From NCBI GenBank assembly GCA_963786935.1, contig CAWBAN010000004.1:256001-320000 (forward strand): 64,000 nt of DNA. The letters are read 5' to 3'. Shown here in pieces: positions 12,001-36,000 of this stretch (position 1 is its first letter; every line of letters starts with the position of its first letter). Source of the stretch: an uncultured bacterium (GTDB lineage: Bacteria > Krumholzibacteriota > Krumholzibacteriia > Krumholzibacteriales > Krumholzibacteriaceae). The position numbers are program-made.

Positions 12001-15000
12001 AAGGCGTGGATCAGCGGTCCGACATCTATTCTCTCGGGATCGTGCTCTTCGAGGCCGCCACCGGGGCGGTGCCGTTCGAGGGAGAAACGCCCCTCGGCGT
12101 CGCGATGAAGCACAAGCTGGAAGCGGCGCCCGATCCGCGGCAGTTCAACGCGCAGATACCGGCCGACCTCAGCGGGCTGATCCTGAAGTGCCTCGAGAAA
12201 GAGAAGGAGGACCGGTATCAGACGGTCGCCGAGATCATCGCGGAGCTCGACGCGATCGAGACGGGGACCGCGAGCCGGCAGAAGACCGGAAAGGCCGGCA
12301 CGGAGAAGCGGCGAAGCACGACGCGCAAGCTCGCACGGAAGAAATCCGGCCTCGAGAAGGCTCTGATCCCCGGCGCCGCCCTTCTGCTCGTGGCCGCCCT
12401 CGCGTTCGGCGGGTGGAAGATCTGGCTGCACGGGAAGCCGTCGGGCGAGGGAGTAACCGAGCCCGGGACGGTCGCGCTCGAAACGGGGGCCGCGGAGAAG
12501 AGGACGGATGCGGCGGCCGAGACGCCGGCGGGACAGGCTCAGGTTCCCGCCGCGGCCAAAGAGGAGCCCCGCGCGGGCGCGGAGGCGGCGAAGTCCGAAG
12601 AAGGAACGCCGGGCGGCGTCGTCGCTTCGGAGCAGAAAGTGCCTTCCGGGGCCGCGGCAGGAGACGAGGCGAGCCGGCAGAGCGAGATCGCGGAGAGCGT
12701 CGCGCGCGGCCTGACGGCGGCCCAGCGGGCGTTCGACCGGGGAAGCTATCAGGAATGCCTGAATCAGGCGCAGGCCGTTCTGAAGATCGATCCGCAGAAC
12801 TCGCAGGCCCGGAACTACGCGGTTCTCGCCGGGGAGAAGCTGGCCGAGGCGGAGATCGGCTCTCTCGTCGATCAGTACGCCCAGGCCCTCAACACGAACG
12901 GGCTGATTCAATTCTACCGGATGCGCTGCACGCCCAAGCTCTTCGCGGAGATCGGGCAGGAAACCGAGCTGTTCACCAGCCTGTACGAGAATTTCAAATG
13001 CACGGTCTCGAGCAAAAGCATCCGGGTGACGGCGCGGGATCGGGCGGAGGCGACGTTCACCCAGCGGCTCCTCGGGACGCGGAAAGGGACGGGGAGCGAG
13101 CAGGAGCTGTCGAAGGGAACGGTGCTGTGGAACCTCGAAAAGCAAGGGCAGAGCTGGAAGATATCGAAAACAGAGTTCAAGCAATGAAGAAGGAAGCATA
13201 AACGGACCTGACGCGGGAGATGGATATGAAGACACGTCTCTGGATAGGATGCCTGCTCGGATTCGCGATCCTGTGCCTCGGCGCGGCGGCGGTTTCGGCG
13301 CAGGGGGAGCCCGTGAAGATCACGGTCGCTGTCGCGGACGCGACGATCCATGCGGGGCCGAGCCTCGAAACGCAGGTCATCGAGCGGCCGACCGTCGGAA
13401 GCGTTTACGAGGTGGTTCAGAAGACCGGTGAATGGTACGAGGTCAAGCTTCCCTCCCGTCTCGGCATGACCATGACGGGCTTCATTCACGTGAAGTTCCT
13501 CGGGCAGGCCGCAGGAGAGGCGAAAGAGGAAGAGGCTCCGGCCGCCGCCGGAGCGGCGCAGACCGCCGCGGCGAAGCGGTTCAATATCAGCGTCGGTTTT
13601 CTCTATCAGGCCCAGAAGGGGTATGACTACGTGTTCAGCTATCCTTTCTACCGTACGACGCTCGGGATATACGACGCCGTGGACGGTCACAGCGCGTTCG
13701 GCTTTCAGGCGGGCGCCGGATACTTCATCACGAACAGCATCCAGCTGGAGCTCGGATTCGGCTATTCGTCGGCGTCCCCGGAAGGCATCTACGGAGCGGA
13801 TCTTCCCGTCGATACCCTCCACAACGAGCACGGGGAGGCTCCGGTCGATCACAAGTTCAGCGAGATGGTCATCAGCTTCGGTCTGAATTATCACTTCCTG
13901 CACGAAGGCCAGGCGCGTCCCTATATCGGGGCCGGCGGGAGCTACATCAGCAGCAAGATGGAATTCATAGAAGACTTTGAACTCGATTACACGACCCAGG
14001 TCGATGTCTCCGAGCCCGTCCTCTCCGAAGAGACCGTCAGCACCTTCGGATTCTACGGCAAAGCCGGCCTGGACTACCTCGTCTCGGAGTCCATCGCCAT
14101 ATTCGGCGAGGCGCGATATACGCTCGCCGGGGAAGAGGAAGTGTCCCAGCCCTTCCTGAGCGAGATCGAAATGTTCGAGGACGAGGTCGTGGACGTCGAC
14201 CTCGGCGGGTTCTCGGCGACGTTCGGGGTCAAGTTCCGCTTCTGATCGGAGTGGTTCGCCATGCCCGGAAAGCCGGCTGCGCGTGTAGGTGATCTGACGG
14301 CGCACGGCGGGTCGATCGTCGGCCCCGGCGCCCCGACGGTCATGATCGGGGGCAAGCCCGCCTCGGTCGTGGGGGACATGCACGTCTGCCCCATGGTGAC
14401 CCCGGCGGTTCCTCCGGTTCCGCACGTCGGCGGGCCGGTTCTTCCTCCGGGCGTTCCGACGGTGCTCATGATGGGGAAGCCCGCCGTCTGCGTGGGGGAT
14501 ATGGCCACGTGCACCGGGCCTCCCGATACTATTCTGCCCCCCGGTTGCCCGACCGTGCTGATCGGGAGCGGCGGCGGAGGCGGCGGCGCGGGGAGCCCGG
14601 GGAGCGGCGGTGGGGGCGCCAAGGCGAAGGCGGCCGAATCGAAGGTCGAGGAAGGCCACTTCCTCGACGTCAAGTTCACCGACAAAGCCGGCAAGCCCAT
14701 CGCCGGCGTGGGCTATACCGTCAAGGGGCCGGGAGGCGCGGCGGGGGAAGGGGTCGTCACGGGGCAGGTCAAGAAATCGGGCGTCGAGCAGGGGAGCTAC
14801 GAGATCGCCCTGCGGGCGATAACCAAGGCGGAATGGTCGACTGAAAAAGCGATGGTCGGCGACAAGGTGAAATTGATCGCCGAGACGGCGGGCATTCCGG
14901 CGGGGGAGAAGGCCGAGCTCGAGATCTTCGTCAAGGACTTGAACGCAGCCGATCATCTTCTGGAGAAGCTCGACGCGCAGGTCAAGAGCGACAAGATCGA

Positions 15001-33000: not shown

Positions 33001-36000
33001 CACCTACGATTACAACGGCCGGGCCGCTTCGATCTCCGATCGCTCGGACGAGGCGGAGAAGATCCGGTCCTTCATGGCGGACGCCGACGGGCTGCTCTTC
33101 TTCTTCGATCCGAAGGTCCTCGGCGCGGATCCCGAGGTCCAGGCGCGGGTCTCGTCGTTCGTCAACGTGCTCGAGCTTATCGTGTCGCTCAAATCGCGTC
33201 TCCCCATCCCCGTGGGGCTCGTGATCACCAAGGCCGATTCGCTTCCCGGCTTCACCGGCGAGGACAAGACGATCCTGATCCGGTCGAAGGACGAGCAGGT
33301 GATCGCCGACGACTACGAGACGTTCCTCGAGAAGGTGCTCGGCTTCGACAGCCTCGCCGACGACCGGGAGTGGGCCGCGTCGGTTCGGACCATCCTCGTG
33401 AAGCTCAGGGAGTTCATCCGCGTCGTCGTGGGGCGGACGCTCGACTTCCAGATCTTCTTCGTGTCGAGCACGGGGAACAAGCCGGAGAAAATCGGCGCCG
33501 AGGTCGGCCGGTCGCTCTACGCGCCGCCCGACAAGGTCAATCCGTGCGGCGTCACGGAGCCGTTCTACTGGATGCTCAAGTCGATCGTCCGGAGCCGGCG
33601 CCTGACCGCGTTCCGGAGGGTCGCGGGATTCGTCGTCGCGATCGCGGCGATCTGGATCGCGCTGTACTCGCTCCCGTTCATGATTCACTTCGGCGGCCTC
33701 CTGCGGTCCCCGGCGCGGGTGGAGAGCAAGGCGCTGAAGGAGGCCGGCGGCAATCACCGGCTCCTGTCGCCGGCGCAGAACGACGACATCTTCAACGCGT
33801 ACCGGCGGTACGGCGGCGCCTGGCTCGTCAAGCGGATGTTCCCCGAGTACCAGGTGCAGGCCCAGCACATGAAGGATATCTACGGCGGCATCGGCACGCC
33901 GACGGCCGGCGGGAGGCTGGACGCCATTCTCATCCAGCTCGCGGGTGTGATCGCCGACGAGAAATCGCGCCCCGTCTGGGACCGCGGCGACAAGAAGGTG
34001 AAGCTCGACGACGCCACCAAGCGGCTGCTCGACGAGCTCAAGGAGATGCACTCCGGCGACGAGAACGAGCCGTCGTTCAAGCGCTCCGAGCGGGCGCTGT
34101 TCCTGTGGGGTCTTTTCGAGCAGCACCTGCAGAGCTCGCAGGATCCGGCGATCCTGAACTCGATCTGGGAGCAGGTCGCCGCGAACGCGAAGAATCCGGA
34201 TTACAACGACGCGGAAGCGCGGTACGGGGAGGCGCTCCAGCGGCTCGCCAACAAGGCGGCTTCGGAGGAAGCTCCTTCCCTGCAGGAAACCAATACGATC
34301 CTCGATGCGTACGCGGAGCTCAAGGGGCGGGTCAACGCGAAGGACGCCGATCCCGCCTTCGTTCTCGGCGAGGCGGCGGACGAGCTTCGGAATATCGCGT
34401 CCAAGCTGACGAGGGGCGTCCACGCCGAGCAGCTCTCCGCGATCTCGCAGTTCGTCGCCGCCGTGGAGGCGCTGAAGAAGGAACAGCAGTACGTCTGCAT
34501 CGTGAAGAACATCGCCGGGCTCGATCACGTTCACATCGAAGTGACGAAACCGGGCGGAAGCCCCTCCTGGTCGGAGCAGACGCAGTGCTTCAAGGGGGAC
34601 GAAGTCGATCTGCGGTGGAAGCCGGGGGACGAAATCTACATCGCGTACGACGAGGAAAAGCACACGTGCAAATGGGGAAATCAGCCGAGCGACATGCAGG
34701 TGTTCGACGACGAATACGCGCTGTACCAGCTCGACGGAAAGGTGAGCTTCTCCAATATCGGAAAGACGGTGACGCTGGGCTTCAAGGGCGGTCTGCGGGA
34801 GAAGCTGCCGAAGCTGAAATGAACGAACGGATCGGAGAAAGGAACGATGGTATGAAAAGAGCGACGCTGTCCGTGCTCGCCGTCCTCGTCCTGGCCGCGC
34901 TGCCCGCGATCGCCTTCGCGGCGAAGGTGGCCGTGCCCGAGGGCACGCCGGTCAAGGTCATGTTCGACGCCGGGAAGAAGATCTCCTCGGGCGAGCGCAA
35001 GGCGGGAGACACGCTGTCGATTCGTCTGGTTGAAGACGTCAAGATCGGCGGAAAGACGATCGTCGGGGCCGGCGCGAAGGGAATCGCGAGGGTCAAGGAA
35101 GTGACGCCCTCTACGAAGCCCGGGAAGCCGGGCACCATAGAAGTCTCGTTCATTTCGCTGACGGCGGGCGGCGAGTTCCGGTCGAAGGACGGAAGCGACA
35201 TCAAGCTCGCCGGAGCGGCGAAGGACGTAGGCGGCTCGCACAAGATCCTTTCCTGGCTCTTCATCTTCGGATTGTTCATCAAGGGGGGGCAGGGGGATAT
35301 CGATGCGGCGCGGATCTACCAGGCTACGGTCGGAGAAACGATCGTTCTCGAGAGCAGATAGCCGGGAGCCGGAGCCCGGGAGGATTCGCCCGCGGCATCC
35401 GCGCCGGTATCACCGGCAGCCGGTGAAGAGATAGTGGTAGGCCGCTCCCCAGGTCCACGCGATATCGTACAGCTCGACCTCGTCGAGGCCGCCCGCCAAA
35501 TACGCGTGGGCCAAGGCGTTATCCTTTCCCATGTACAGCGCGCCGATCGTGTTCGGGGCCGCCTCGCGGCCGTCCCCGGCGATCCACGATCCCGTCATCT
35601 GGTAGATGTAGCATCCGGCCCCGACGACCGTCACCGGTGATGAAGGCTCGCCGAAGCGGTACGAGAAGAGCACGTGGAACCAGCCCGTCGACCGGGCGTC
35701 CGGAATGTCGACTCGATACGTGTGATATTTCGAGCTTCCATATCTGAAGAGCAGCGACTTGAAGCCGTCGGTGCCCGAGGCGTCCTGGAGGAGCAGCTGG
35801 TAGTTGATGGCCCCGTTCGCGTTTCGCTTGCAGATCAGCGACGAGAGCGGATTCGGGGCGGTGGCGGCAGGCACATAGATCCACATCGACATCGTGATCT
35901 CGTTCGAAAGATCGAGGAGCGCGTCGTCGGGAACCTCGACGAAATCGCTGGTCCCGTTGAAGAGGCGCGCCTGGCCGGCGGGCCCGTAGGGCTCGTTCGT

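Follow-up and report, generated by a model that had tools for sequence, protein, structure and literature searches.

Sixteen co-directional genes on the + strand, at positions 14261..35361 of the 64,000-nucleotide stretch of DNA that we analysed (the window), make up one type VI secretion system (T6SS) locus, and the three genes that close it, g26, g27 and g28, are best read as a T6SS membrane module of a third type, judging by their conserved order, co-occurrence and predicted topology. The T6SS is a contractile bacterial "nano-crossbow". The genome (G000; 3.26 Mb in 5 contigs, 96.5% complete) had been surveyed before, and the gene positions proved to be all as the survey's finding gave them; its family matches from PAAR to TssK and for g27 were reproduced, while g14, g26 and g28 again matched no Pfam or NCBIfam family. 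Family profile searches identified PAAR, ClpV, TssB/C, Hcp, VgrG and TssE/F/G/K among the following genes:

14261..15319, + strand, PAAR spike-tip protein with a C-terminal extension (weak CarboxypepD_reg-like stretch); PF05488 72.6 bits
15351..18611, + strand, g14, 1086 aa, candidate cargo effector; conserved place after PAAR
18617..19828, + strand, g15, 403 aa, predicted lipoprotein with a PQQ/BamB-like beta-propeller, candidate immunity protein; PQQ_2 33.9 bits
19887..20312, + strand, DcrB-family protein, 141 aa, cytoplasmic, candidate effector chaperone/adaptor; PF08786 38.5 bits
20421..22940, + strand, ClpV/TssH sheath-recycling AAA+ ATPase, ClpB-family; TIGR03345 684 bits (cut-off 885), AAA_2 215 bits, Clp_N
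22964..23407, + strand, TssB small sheath subunit, probable start ATG at 22967; PF05591 35.1 bits, TIGR03358 E 7.7e-9
23425..24843, + strand, TssC large sheath subunit of the PF17541 type; 233.1 bits, model 20-420 of 430
24852..25295, + strand, Hcp/TssD tube protein, probable start ATG at 24891; PF17642 73.3 bits
25410..27203, + strand, VgrG spike; Phage_base_V 89.7 bits, Phage_GPD 61.6 bits, NF033848 189.7 bits
27212..27586, + strand, TssE (gp25-like) baseplate wedge protein; PF04965 (GPW_gp25) 53.6 bits, TIGR03357 E 3.2e-10
27588..29255, + strand, divergent TssF; weak matches, TIGR03359 E 2.7e-4, PF05947 E 0.0074
29255..30156, + strand, TssG, split in the assembly, ~300 aa if read through; PF06996 53.6 bits, C-terminal part
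30200..31651, + strand, divergent TssK; weak matches, TIGR03353 E 1.8e-10 (residues 8-215), PF05936 E 1.3e-3
31667..32596, + strand, g26, 309-aa helical-repeat protein, candidate inner-membrane anchor or baseplate dock; AF2 model, TM segment
32612..34822, + strand, g27, predicted 736-aa bitopic membrane GTPase; AF2 model, DO-GTPase2, invariant residues
34852..35361, + strand, g28, putative Sec-exported protein, conserved C-terminal hydrophobic motif; signal-peptide-like N-terminus, most likely start 34852, giving 169 aa with signal peptide

It is well-founded that TssB and TssC form a contractile sheath around the Hcp tube, that VgrG and the PAAR protein make up the tip of this tube, that TssE/F/G/K constitute the baseplate on which the tail assembles, and that the contracted sheath is recycled by ClpV, whose TIGR03345 match runs in one stretch over residues 8-813. 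TssG is broken in the assembly: its N-terminal part begins at ATG 29255, and its C-terminal part, to which the annotated 228-aa ORF corresponds, continues in another frame to 30156, the assembly lacking a single base near 29422-29430. In three public runs, all contigs that read across this point (two from X1, one each from X2 and X5) carry an additional base at 29422 or 29425, and relatives keep both parts in one frame, as in the intact 300-aa ortholog of locus L011; the gene is therefore probably intact. Judged from its genes, the T6SS encoded by the locus is complete, of a distinct deep lineage and probably functional. Taken as a whole, with that lineage, the membrane module of g26-g28 and the roles proposed below, we hold our explanation to be moderately probable.

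Because all the non-membrane core families sit in one co-directional locus, we regard it as confirmed that this is a real T6SS, and the reading as an extracellular injection system was rejected on the same ground. The subtype had been given as T6SS-iii-like outside Bacteroidota, a view that stands as far as the sheath and tube fall in Pfam families built on Bacteroidota (PF17541 and PF17642), and fails on the relationship of TssC, the sole PF17541 match in the genome. TssC is 27-30% identical to the TssC of Bacteroidota loci bearing TssN/TssO, its PF17541 score is 233 bits where the top-scoring members, of canonical type, reach 400-757 bits, and in trees rooted on T6SS-i it groups with relatives labelled Zixibacteria and Eisenbacteria in a deep PF17541 clade of its own, apart from the clade of the four named Bacteroidota sequences. 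Given this low identity and the separate clade, we reject an assignment to T6SS-iii proper.

Both known membrane complexes of the T6SS, TssJLM and TssNQOPR, appear to be absent from this 96.5%-complete genome by every family model tried, in agreement with the survey. Searches across the genome gave at best 17 bits for TssM (TIGR03348, E 0.0015, outside the locus), E 0.32 for DotU (TIGR03349) and E 0.46 for TssJ (TIGR03352); TssO (PF17561) reached E 0.29 at best, and neither TssN (PF17555) nor TssR_VWA (PF20782) gave a match.

The conservation of the locus points to g26-g28 as parts of the machine, although the genomes behind this and the following conservation and co-occurrence counts are related and are not independent samples. 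The three trailing genes had been treated as loose unknowns; instead, the order TssC-Hcp-VgrG-TssE-F-G-K-g26-g27, which g28 continues, was colinear in 55 of the 56 loci whose upstream flank was complete, the lone exception being L019, whose TssC (76% identity) lies elsewhere on the same chromosome. TssF likewise keeps its place in 55/56 loci, the place of TssK is conserved among the relatives' loci, and ClpV adjoins TssB in 49 of the 56. Where the flanks sufficed, g26 follows TssK and precedes g27 in 74/75 loci and g28 comes after g27 in 66/66, an order kept despite divergence of the proteins to 35-50% identity. Among 208 genomes of the phylum, 22 encode a TssC relative (in keeping with the survey's count of at least 19-20 of 207) and 22 a g27 relative, 21 having both and 185 neither. 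Even in the far more divergent locus of G034, whose TssC is 34% identical, TssK is followed by proteins resembling g26 (25% identity) and g27 (27% identity). Colinearity, co-occurrence and the G034 order thus support g26-g28 as core parts and as the most strictly conserved lineage-specific components of the system. Nor is the system peculiar to Krumholzibacteriota: a g27 relative is encoded in 108 species genomes labelled Zixibacteria, Krumholzibacteriota, Ignavibacteria and others, from which the 56 fully flanked loci come, and the same 12-gene block occurs in MAG loci (n=80) labelled Zixibacteria (29), Ignavibacteria (21) and Krumholzibacteriota (8), as well as GN15, Latescibacterota and Calditrichota.

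The AF2 model of g26 (pLDDT 83.5) is all helical, and a single TM-like segment at 265-283 makes the protein apparently tail-anchored. Likeness of g26 to TssL/DotU or TssN was detected neither by Foldseek (best E 0.27) nor by a profile search against reference sequences, and its best VIA hit (Z 8.5), to helical repeats of a generic kind, does not rise above the background that the tool states for helical proteins. In g27 (AF2, pLDDT 80.9) a Ras-like G domain (~30-305) is followed by a TM helix (333-351), a helical region (365-621) and a beta domain (625-724), the part beyond the TM helix being presumably periplasmic. Both structure searches returned lists taken up by matches to the GTPase domain; in VIA-align a RagA-like GTPase came first (Z 15.9, 177 residues aligned at rmsd 3.0), and Rab/Arf entries were tied below it. 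Since K46, D133, G136, K207 and D209 (P-loop lysine, DxxG and TKxD) are also invariant in 33 sequences, g27 is predicted to be a Ras-like GTPase with a cytoplasmic G domain. A signal-peptide-like hydrophobic N-terminus was present in all 66 g28 orthologs extracted; 35 aligned orthologs share no conserved Cys and g28 has no lipobox, so an outer-membrane anchor is not evident.

We propose that this lineage-specific module, encoded right after tssK, takes the place of TssJLM or TssNQOPR in anchoring the machine to the envelope. One C-terminal helix would hold g26 in the inner membrane with its helical-repeat domain on the cytoplasmic side (the side is assumed), and one helix would hold g27, its GTPase domain in the cytoplasm and its helical-plus-beta domain presumably in the periplasm. 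The cytoplasmic domains of both may dock the baseplate, g28, a small exported protein, may join the extracytoplasmic part of g27 in spanning the periplasm, and GTP binding or hydrolysis by g27 could act as a switch for assembly or firing. DO-GTPase2, the best Pfam family of g27 (27.4 bits, cut-off 27.0), matches 33/33 family members, and IcmF-related_N (E 0.0078 in g27) matches 19/33 weakly. Passages of PMC7159879 describe DO-GTPase2 for conflict-system switches, not for structural proteins, and a purely regulatory role of g27 is therefore possible; the conserved order and predicted topology set out above favour the membrane module.

At the other end of the locus, PAAR, g14, g15 and the DcrB-family protein may form a cargo set of spike tip, effector, lipoprotein immunity and chaperone, in that order. 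In seven informative relatives, homologs of PAAR (upstream of ClpV) and of the DcrB-family protein were found in all, those of g14 (26-39% identity, between PAAR and g15/DcrB) in six and those of g15 in five. The g15 N-terminus has a hydrophobic stretch followed by a Cys, neither a signal peptide nor a TM segment was found in g14, and PF08786 (DcrB-like) presumably equates with the DUF1795/Eag chaperones. The Atlas clusters nearest to g14 hold proteins of ~1084-1256 aa, 13-35% of them with OmpA or PG_binding domains, which is a lead only.

The locus is flanked by the following genes:

8420..9232, + strand, PP2C Ser/Thr phosphatase, candidate regulator (PppA-like role); PF13672 72 bits, NF033484 160.6 bits (below cut-off)
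9240..11276, - strand, membrane Ser/Thr kinase, 678 aa, one predicted TM helix (TM-like 360-378); Pkinase 186.8 bits
11328..13187, + strand, membrane Ser/Thr kinase, 619 aa, N-terminal zinc ribbon, TM-like 345-363; Pkinase 198.4 bits
13220..14245, + strand, outer-membrane beta-barrel protein, signal peptide, weak SH3 domain; OMP_b-brl 43.7 bits
35410..36951, - strand, predicted lipoprotein with a LamG domain, closing the convergent operon; Laminin_G_3 38.5 bits
36964..38085, - strand, exported protein, 373 aa, no Pfam, NCBIfam or PDB sequence match
38075..39421, - strand, TPR + CsgG/LpoB-like predicted lipoprotein, 448 aa; TPR families, CsgG E 9.7e-5, LAGC lipobox-like N-terminus
39449..40498, - strand, CsgG/LpoB-like exported protein, 349 aa, C-terminal TPR; CsgG 57.9 bits, TIGR02722 LpoB E 2.5e-4
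40547..42037, - strand, membrane Ser/Thr kinase, 496 aa, TM-like 309-327, opening the convergent operon and candidate PpkA-like regulator; Pkinase 170.1 bits

A PP2C homolog adjoins the PAAR module in four of seven informative upstream stretches of relatives. The 678-aa kinase has homologs in L097 (66% identical) and L101 (64%), the 619-aa kinase in L097 (55%), and the beta-barrel protein beside the kinase in L097 only (58%), no homolog of it being found within the 80 loci. The convergent kinase/CsgG-like lipoprotein operon is conserved beside the T6SS locus: among the 40 loci that measure 20 kb or more, the LamG lipoprotein has a homolog in the same place in 32, the 373-aa, 448-aa and 349-aa proteins each in 33, and the 496-aa kinase at an unchanged offset in 31 (33-68% identity). 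Homologs of the 373-aa and 448-aa proteins lie inside the G034 locus, the latter between TssF and TssK. The flanking kinases, the phosphatase and this kinase/CsgG-like/TPR operon may serve as envelope-side regulators or outer-membrane partners.

No paper on this system or its membrane module was found in our literature search. If our reading is correct, it is a T6SS with an envelope anchor that is neither TssJLM nor TssNQOPR and that includes a Ras-like GTPase. Its TssC and Hcp share the Pfam families of the T6SS-iii sheath and tube, with the TssC in a clade of its own. The proposed docking of g26/g27 to the baseplate would resemble that of TssL/TssM or TssN. Not only does g27 have the same order as TssM of NTPase, TM helix and extracytoplasmic helical and beta domains, but a two-sequence search with Vibrio TssM also returned a common motif, SRLP..V.TK.D.L.GF (14/27 identical, E 0.018), and the weak IcmF-related_N matches of the g27 family point the same way. 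Finally, the succession of tssK, a tail-anchored protein and an NTPase parallels the contiguous tssJKLM group that passages of PMC10781749 describe for T6SS-i.

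Between positions 14261 and 35361 the window carries a run of co-directional + strand genes. All the genes that the survey's finding had placed there are present, and searches against Pfam and NCBIfam reproduced their family assignments.

Genes of the locus with a family match (window 14261-35361)
+ strand, PAAR tip: PF05488, 72.6 bits
+ strand, DcrB-family protein: 38.5 bits
+ strand, ClpV/TssH: TIGR03345, 684 bits over one continuous stretch (curated cut-off 885, not reached); ClpB-family architecture, gene adjoining tssB
+ strand, TssB: PF05591, 35.1 bits
+ strand, TssC: PF17541, 233.1 bits; gene adjoining tssB
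+ strand, Hcp/TssD: PF17642, 73.3 bits
+ strand, VgrG: Phage_base_V, 89.7 bits, and Phage_GPD, 61.6 bits
+ strand, TssE: 53.6 bits, above the Pfam cut-off
+ strand, TssF: weak, E 2.7e-4, below the NCBIfam cut-off; position conserved
+ strand, TssG: 53.6 bits, above the Pfam cut-off
+ strand, TssK: weak, E 1.8e-10, below the NCBIfam cut-off; position conserved

These Pfam and NCBIfam matches supply the parts by which a type VI secretion system (T6SS) is generally recognized, namely a TssB and TssC sheath, Hcp, VgrG and PAAR, a baseplate of TssE, TssF, TssG and TssK, and ClpV. By family membership and conservation, the locus encodes a contractile machine of sheath, tube, spike and baseplate with recycling by ClpV. 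It holds the single PF17541 match of the genome (3.26 Mb, 5 contigs, 96.5% complete). Neither Pfam nor NCBIfam returned a family match for g14 (1086 aa), near the start of the locus, or for g26 (309 aa) and g28, which with the GTPase g27 are the three genes trailing tssK.

One assignment had to be amended. TssG is present in the locus, as the survey's finding had it, and is of the PF06996 type; the annotated 228-aa reading frame, however, is the C-terminal part of the gene alone, and comparison of frames, a related locus (L011) and public contigs shows that it is incomplete and split by a missing base. An ATG at 29255, overlapping the TssF stop, opens a TssG-like N-terminus of about 58 codons before the frame degenerates, and in the window the C-terminal part runs in a different frame. 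The L011 ortholog is a single 300-aa frame that bridges both pieces. Over positions 28800-30400, every public contig that crosses the site has an additional base at 29422 or 29425 (two contigs from X1 and one each from X2 and X5, three public runs), although these are contigs, not raw reads, and a minority variant is possible. Since all of them carry the extra base, the window is one base short in the C/G run of tssG at 29422-29430. The missing base is an assembly error or a rare variant, and no sign of decay. Further errors of the homopolymer type may occur elsewhere in this genome.

A search with g27 retrieved 252 proteins at E <= 0.001; among the 120 of these listed, nearly all were full length (~735 aa) and 39-91% identical, and the sources named among the listed matches were Krumholzibacteriota, Zixibacteria, Latescibacteria and GN15. 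Scanning one genome per GTDB species, we found a g27 relative in 108 genomes and kept 80 loci, of which 29 were labelled Zixibacteria, 21 Ignavibacteria, 8 Krumholzibacteriota and 2 GN15, with one each labelled Latescibacterota, Calditrichota, Deferrimicrobium and 'FCB group' and 16 unlabelled. By tblastn, the series TssC-Hcp-VgrG-TssE-TssF-TssG-TssK-g26-g27 was complete and colinear in 55 of the 56 loci with a full 10-kb upstream flank. Moreover, g26 precedes g27 in 74 of 75 loci, and g28 follows it in all 66 with enough downstream sequence. The exception is L019, on a closed Zixibacteria chromosome (CP070766.1), where a TssC 76% identical lies about 400 kb from the g27-g28 pair, so that we regard it as a split system and no orphan. 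Within the phylum, relatives of TssC and of g27 each occur in 22 of 208 genomes; 21 hold both and 185 neither, the two mismatches being a genome, 75% complete, whose g27 fragment lies where a contig starts, and another with only a 22%-identical sheath match. The distribution is patchy, with g27 in 5 of the 15 other genomes of the genus. The genome G034 (C1:192000-228000, covered by stretches L106 and L107), which belongs to the same class and to a different family, has a second, much more divergent T6SS lineage (TssC 34% identical). Here again TssK has a g26-like protein (25% identical) after it and then a g27-like one, encoded by an ORF of about 815 aa and 27% identical across the G domain and transmembrane (TM) helix. 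The G034 locus also has two Hcp genes, a ClpV gene divergent from TssB, and CsgG/TPR-like genes between TssF and TssK. Because gene order is conserved far beyond chance or mere neighbourhood, g26, g27 and g28 are parts of the system. The locus is a genuine and complete T6SS, and the lineage to which it belongs is distinct and fairly widespread.

The survey's finding had also described the machine as T6SS-iii-like. This stands for the families of sheath and tube, PF17541 and PF17642, and does not extend further: the window TssC falls in a separate clade at 27-30% identity, and the TssN, TssO and TssR models go unmatched. In a plasmid search the best TssC matches (27-30% identical, E 1e-44 to 1e-50) came from Bacteroidota loci annotated with TssN, TssO and TssR; no T6SS-i TssC was matched on plasmids at E <= 0.01, nor did any VipB-type family of Pfam or NCBIfam match at E <= 0.01. 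A search of 1.84 billion cluster representatives gave 385 TssC matches. The representative of the window's own cluster was 53% identical, a few intermediates were 32-38% identical (two of their clusters with members labelled Zixibacteria and Eisenbacteria), and the bulk were 22-31% identical, one of them a KSB1 protein that NCBI names TssC. All 98 matches scanned contain PF17541, its top members scoring 400-757 bits, including a cluster that groups with Bacteroides and Tenacibaculum, and the window clade and intermediates 170-233; after this family, the next sheath relatives are those of phages and extracellular contractile injection systems (eCIS). In TssC trees from quick searches, with SH-aLRT support only and rooted on three T6SS-i plasmid sequences, the window clade is monophyletic (SH-aLRT 98-100), with P0121 and P0123, the latter labelled Zixibacteria, as closest neighbours (SH-aLRT 99). 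The four named Bacteroidota TssC belong to a different clade (SH-aLRT 95 with 16 rows, 88 with 28 rows), in trees whose deep backbone is without resolution and whose T6SS-i outgroup sits on a long branch. Judged by these comparisons the sheath is T6SS-iii-like at family level, and the system itself a separate deep lineage. The TssC of the Ignavibacteria- or Ignavibacteriales-labelled loci (21 of 80; L017, L021, L024, L031 and others) interleave with Zixibacteria-labelled ones in the tree, owing either to gene transfer or to labels that cannot be relied on. In GTDB the Ignavibacteria belong to Bacteroidota, and the phrase 'outside Bacteroidota' therefore needs care. Some PF17541 proteins are long: P0135 (1330 aa) has a TIR_2 domain upstream of its TssC part, and P0141, P0144, P0155, P0168, P0170, P0178 and P0206 are also among the longer ones, several at 574-595 aa with about 150-200 extra N-terminal residues, possibly as TssB-TssC fusions.

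The reported absence of TssJ, TssL and TssM was borne out, as no model of a known anchor family that we tried gave a credible match in the whole genome. The best match to the TssM model TIGR03348 was one of 17 bits outside the locus; DotU/TssL (TIGR03349), TssJ (TIGR03352) and TssO (PF17561) reached E 0.32, 0.46 and 0.29 at best, and TssN (PF17555) and TssR_VWA (PF20782) found no match. Within the locus, Pfam and TM prediction revealed neither a PKD family match nor a protein with five TM helices. The genome is thus without the TssJ/L/M set of T6SS-i and, by the PF17555, PF17561 and PF20782 models and the PKD and TM check of the locus, without the TssN/Q/O/P/R set of T6SS-iii.

The trailing genes were examined as predicted structures and family profiles. 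In the g26 model (pLDDT 83.5), residues 1-245 form a repeat domain made up of helices alone, after which stands a single long hydrophobic helix with a TM-like segment at 265-283; in predicted topology g26 resembles the tail-anchored layout of TssL/DotU, a helical domain with a C-terminal TM helix. No sequence match to DotU was found with Pfam, NCBIfam or the family profile against reference proteins. Among the matches listed by Foldseek (best E 0.27) there was no DotU and nothing specific, and a structural search of all against representatives listed generic helical repeats at best (Z 8.5) and again no DotU; the family profile reached E 0.062 at best among PDB sequences, with a centromere protein. 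Profiles of g26 and of g27 were also run by hmmsearch on 19 reference proteins (TssJ, TssK, TssL and TssM from two plasmids; TssN, TssO, TssP, TssR, TssK and TssG from Bacteroides and Hymenobacter), and the sole match was that of g26 to one Bacteroides TssO, at 15.6 bits and in the presumed cytoplasmic part of g26. We rejected an identity with TssO as too weak, the Pfam TssO model matching 0 of 30 family members at E <= 1. An assignment of g26 to DUF5454 was likewise discarded: 4 of 30 relatives matched weakly (best E 0.0037), and 0 of 19 Bacteroidota T6SS-locus proteins scanned belong to it. As for g28, a signal-peptide-like hydrophobic N-terminus is found in 66 of 66 extracted orthologs, and 35 aligned orthologs share a hydrophobic motif near the C-terminus; as no cysteine is conserved among them, g28 is no lipoprotein.

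In the g27 model (pLDDT 80.9) a G domain occupies residues 30-305. Its best structural match is a RagA-like GTPase (Z 15.9, rmsd 3.0, 177 residues), with Rab and Arf entries tied just below, and its invariant residues include the P-loop lysine K46, D133 and G136 of DxxG, and K207 and D209 of TKxD. A long helix follows, in which the sole TM segment (333-351) lies; beyond it are some 260 helical residues and, at the C-terminus, a beta domain (625-724). Basic residues that precede the TM helix point to a cytoplasmic G domain and an outer location for the remainder. Against DO-GTPase2 (PF19993) g27 scores 27.4 bits for a cut-off of 27.0, aligning to profile positions 107-174 of 226 only, and the family is matched by 33 of 33 relatives (best E 1.7e-7). 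The IcmF-related_N match is a 24-residue stretch (E 0.0078, 16 bits against a cut-off of 25), weak as well in 19 of 33 relatives (best E 0.0019). As a TssM/IcmF protein g27 falls short, the set of IcmF-related_N, IcmF-related and IcmF_C being incomplete and NCBIfam, including TIGR03348, giving no match. Around G4, g27 and a Vibrio TssM share 'SRLP..V.TK.D.L.GF' (14 of 27 identical, E 0.018 in a two-sequence search), which is suggestive of a kinship of the G domains and well short of proof. The family profile met nothing below E 0.5 among PDB sequences, Foldseek and VIA-align with the whole model as query returned GTPases only, and an ESM Atlas search with residues 365-736 yielded no usable match. 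A complex prediction of g27(355-736) with g28(24-169) scored 0.01, 0.48 and 0.06, which speaks neither for nor against binding.

The set PAAR-g14-g15-DcrB lies upstream of ClpV in relatives as well: PAAR and DcrB were found in 7/7 informative stretches each, g14 in 6/7 and g15 in 5/7, counting seven of nine stretches after L104 (from genome G005, with no match at all) and L105 (too short) were dropped. g14 has no signal peptide and no TM segment, g15 is a lipoprotein-like beta-propeller by prediction, and the DcrB family is, we presume, the DUF1795/Eag chaperone family. We infer that the four form a set of spike tip, effector, immunity protein and chaperone. In the relatives' stretches L098-L102 an extra gene resembling residues 163-349 of the PAAR protein and about 3 kb of other sequence stand between DcrB and ClpV, where the window has only 108 bases. 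Three further features surround the locus.

Neighbours of the T6SS locus
8420-13187, divergent: a phosphatase of PP2C type and, in divergent arrangement, two membrane Ser/Thr kinases; immediately upstream of the T6SS
42037-35410, - strand: convergent operon of five genes, for a membrane Ser/Thr kinase, a CsgG/LpoB-like protein, a TPR and CsgG-like lipoprotein, an exported protein of 373 aa and a LamG lipoprotein
42584-44857, + strand: protein of 757 aa whose C-terminal sorting domain is of T9SS type (Por_Secre_tail, FlgD_ig)

The phosphatase recurs in 4 of 7 relatives, and no FHA-domain family was found among the 44 window proteins scanned against Pfam. The operon stands beside the T6SS in 31-33 of the 40 loci of at least 20 kb, its CsgG-like/TPR and 373-aa proteins being kept there in 33 of 40; in G034 the T6SS locus itself contains, between TssF and TssK, homologs of the TPR and CsgG-like and 373-aa proteins. 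These genes may serve an envelope-sensing phosphorylation pathway, or they may supply the missing outer-membrane part. The sorting domain of the 757-aa protein implies a type IX secretion pathway in this organism.

Conserved order, co-occurrence and topology lead us to think it fairly likely that g26, g27 and g28 form the envelope anchor. The cytoplasmic domains of g26 and g27 would be presented to TssK and TssG, and the outer domains of g27, together with g28, would cross the periplasm. More speculatively, GTP might switch assembly or firing, the CsgG-like lipoproteins might be the outer-membrane partner, and the kinases and phosphatase might control the T6SS. It is also conceivable, though on balance unlikely, that the three are accessories or regulators that have been conserved, such as a GTPase switch with partners that times assembly (compare TagF/Fha/PpkA-type proteins), while the anchor lies elsewhere, in the CsgG-like/TPR lipoproteins of the operon, its 373-aa exported protein, or proteins encoded at another site. 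A regulatory role would suit a g27 whose best family is the switch-type GTPase of conflict systems and a locus surrounded by kinases and a phosphatase, as well as the finding that the CsgG-like/TPR and 373-aa proteins adjoin the T6SS in 33 of 40 loci and have homologs inside the G034 locus, and the absence of structural likeness between g26 and any known anchor protein in our structure searches. Nevertheless, g26 and g27 are the sole predicted inner-membrane proteins of the conserved block and occupy the place of tssL-tssM after tssK in T6SS-i. Their linkage to the core and that of g28 (55/56, 66/66, 74/75) is tighter than the linkage of the convergent operon (31-33/40), whose products are exported or lipoproteins, only the kinase having a cytoplasmic domain able to reach the baseplate.

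We consider it very improbable that this is an ordinary T6SS-iii in which TssN, TssQ, TssO, TssP and TssR, g26-g28 among them, have diverged past recognition. The number, size and topology of the proteins differ, and scans of the locus, and of the genome for the TssN and TssR models, turned up no five-TM TssN-like protein, no PKD protein and no vWA lipoprotein of about 780 aa. Passages of the T6SS-iii survey (PMC10781749) do describe TssO, TssQ and TssR of Bacteroidota as often unrecognisable by sequence, but the same source has TssN and TssP as nearly ubiquitous in T6SS-iii. Membership of TssC and Hcp in PF17541 and PF17642 fits such a divergence; TssC, however, lies outside the clade of TssN-bearing loci. 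The 15.6-bit match to one Bacteroides TssO in the 19-sequence search falls in the presumed cytoplasmic part of g26, and Pfam TssO matches 0/30 at E <= 1. Least of all do we expect an eCIS- or T6SS-iv-like injection system, extracellular or cytoplasmic, or a decaying remnant in place of a working envelope-anchored T6SS. Both known membrane complexes are missing, and phage and eCIS sheaths are the next relatives after PF17541; still, the locus has ClpV, a sheath of two parts (TssB/TssC) and TssK, all of them conserved, and no tape-measure, tail-fibre or cap-like family was matched in the locus. The TssG frameshift of the window would suit a remnant but is missing from independent contigs, and 12 genes that stay open and colinear across phylum-level divergence argue for purifying selection.

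The distinct position of the system bears on the origin of T6SS membrane complexes. Available passages of PMC10781749 report 443 T6SS-iii loci in 1253 complete Bacteroidota genomes and no such locus in over 20,000 further complete genomes, a survey that we assume holds few or none of the phyla known from MAGs alone that carry this system. The PF17541-type system is confined to Bacteroidota in current accounts, as far as that source represents them, and a review of August 2026, in the portion available, still lists four T6SS clades and two membrane complexes (PMC13584744). Literature on T6SS with Zixibacteria, 'T6SS-v', new subtypes or FCB phyla, covering main texts and a minority of subscription journals, yielded no description of the system. 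We see about even chances that it is a fifth major T6SS lineage in FCB-group candidate phyla, with either a third, independently recruited membrane complex around the membrane-bound Ras-like GTPase g27 with g26 and g28, or g26 and g27 as deep TssL/TssM homologs. In the case of homology, a TssM-like NTPase anchor would be older than the split between the PF17541 type and T6SS-i, and Bacteroidota would later have exchanged it for TssNQOPR; this would make a choice among three scenarios that PMC10781749, in its passages on origin, leaves open. The three-protein membrane module with its Ras-like GTPase is conserved and unstudied; its strict conservation makes its members concrete candidates for a third T6SS anchor, and replacement, independent recruitment and descent from a TssM-like ancestor become testable. 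Uncultured lineages of sediments and wetlands, Zixibacteria and Krumholzibacteriota for instance, would on this evidence be armed for contact-dependent antagonism.

Among known proteins, it is the DO-GTPases (Kaur et al., 2020; PMC7159879) that the G domain of g27 matches best in Pfam, at a score on the cut-off (27.4 vs 27.0 bits), and both are of TRAFAC type, often working near the membrane. DO-GTPase conflict systems have paired GTPases and a GAP1 partner (PMC7159879, in part), whereas neither a paired GTPase nor GAP1 was among the family matches in a Pfam scan of the locus, no search aimed at GAP1 having been made; g27 stands in a T6SS, which the available portion of that paper does not mention. 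With T6SS-iii, described in Bacteroidota as TssB-K with TssNQOPR in passages of Bongiovanni et al. (2024; PMC10781749), the window shares the PF17541 sheath and PF17642 tube, ClpV, VgrG, PAAR, TssE, TssF, TssG and TssK, the absence of TssA and TssJLM, and membrane-protein genes adjoining tssK. It differs in its TssC (27-30% identical, separate clade), in a genome without the TssN, TssO and TssR families, in having three membrane-module proteins where T6SS-iii has five, in a GTPase that has no T6SS-iii counterpart, and in hosts labelled Zixibacteria, Krumholzibacteriota, Ignavibacteria and the like.

The order tssK-g26-g27-g28 parallels the tssJKLM gene group of T6SS-i (PMC10781749, in part). 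As in the TssJ-TssL-TssM systems of Pseudomonadota, tssK is followed by the gene of a tail-anchored helical protein and then by that of a membrane NTPase with a large extracytoplasmic domain; a small exported protein comes last here. On the other side, there is no family-level match (TIGR03348, TIGR03349, TIGR03352), the sheath is of another family, the g26 fold has no DotU likeness among the fold matches listed, and g28 is no lipoprotein. TssM consists of an N-terminal hairpin, an NTPase, a TM helix, and helical and beta domains. g27 has the same order of NTPase, TM helix, helical domain and beta domain and shares the P-loop, DxxG and TKxD..L.GF motifs of the TssM NTPase, but is without the N-terminal TM hairpin and is shorter, at 736 aa against about 1130-1170 aa. 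A contractile phage-tail-like core and the lack of TssJLM are common to the locus and to T6SS-iv and eCIS. Those systems have a single sheath protein, a tape measure, a cap and fibres and are described as having neither ClpV nor a sheath split into TssB and TssC, whereas the window locus has ClpV and both TssB and TssC.
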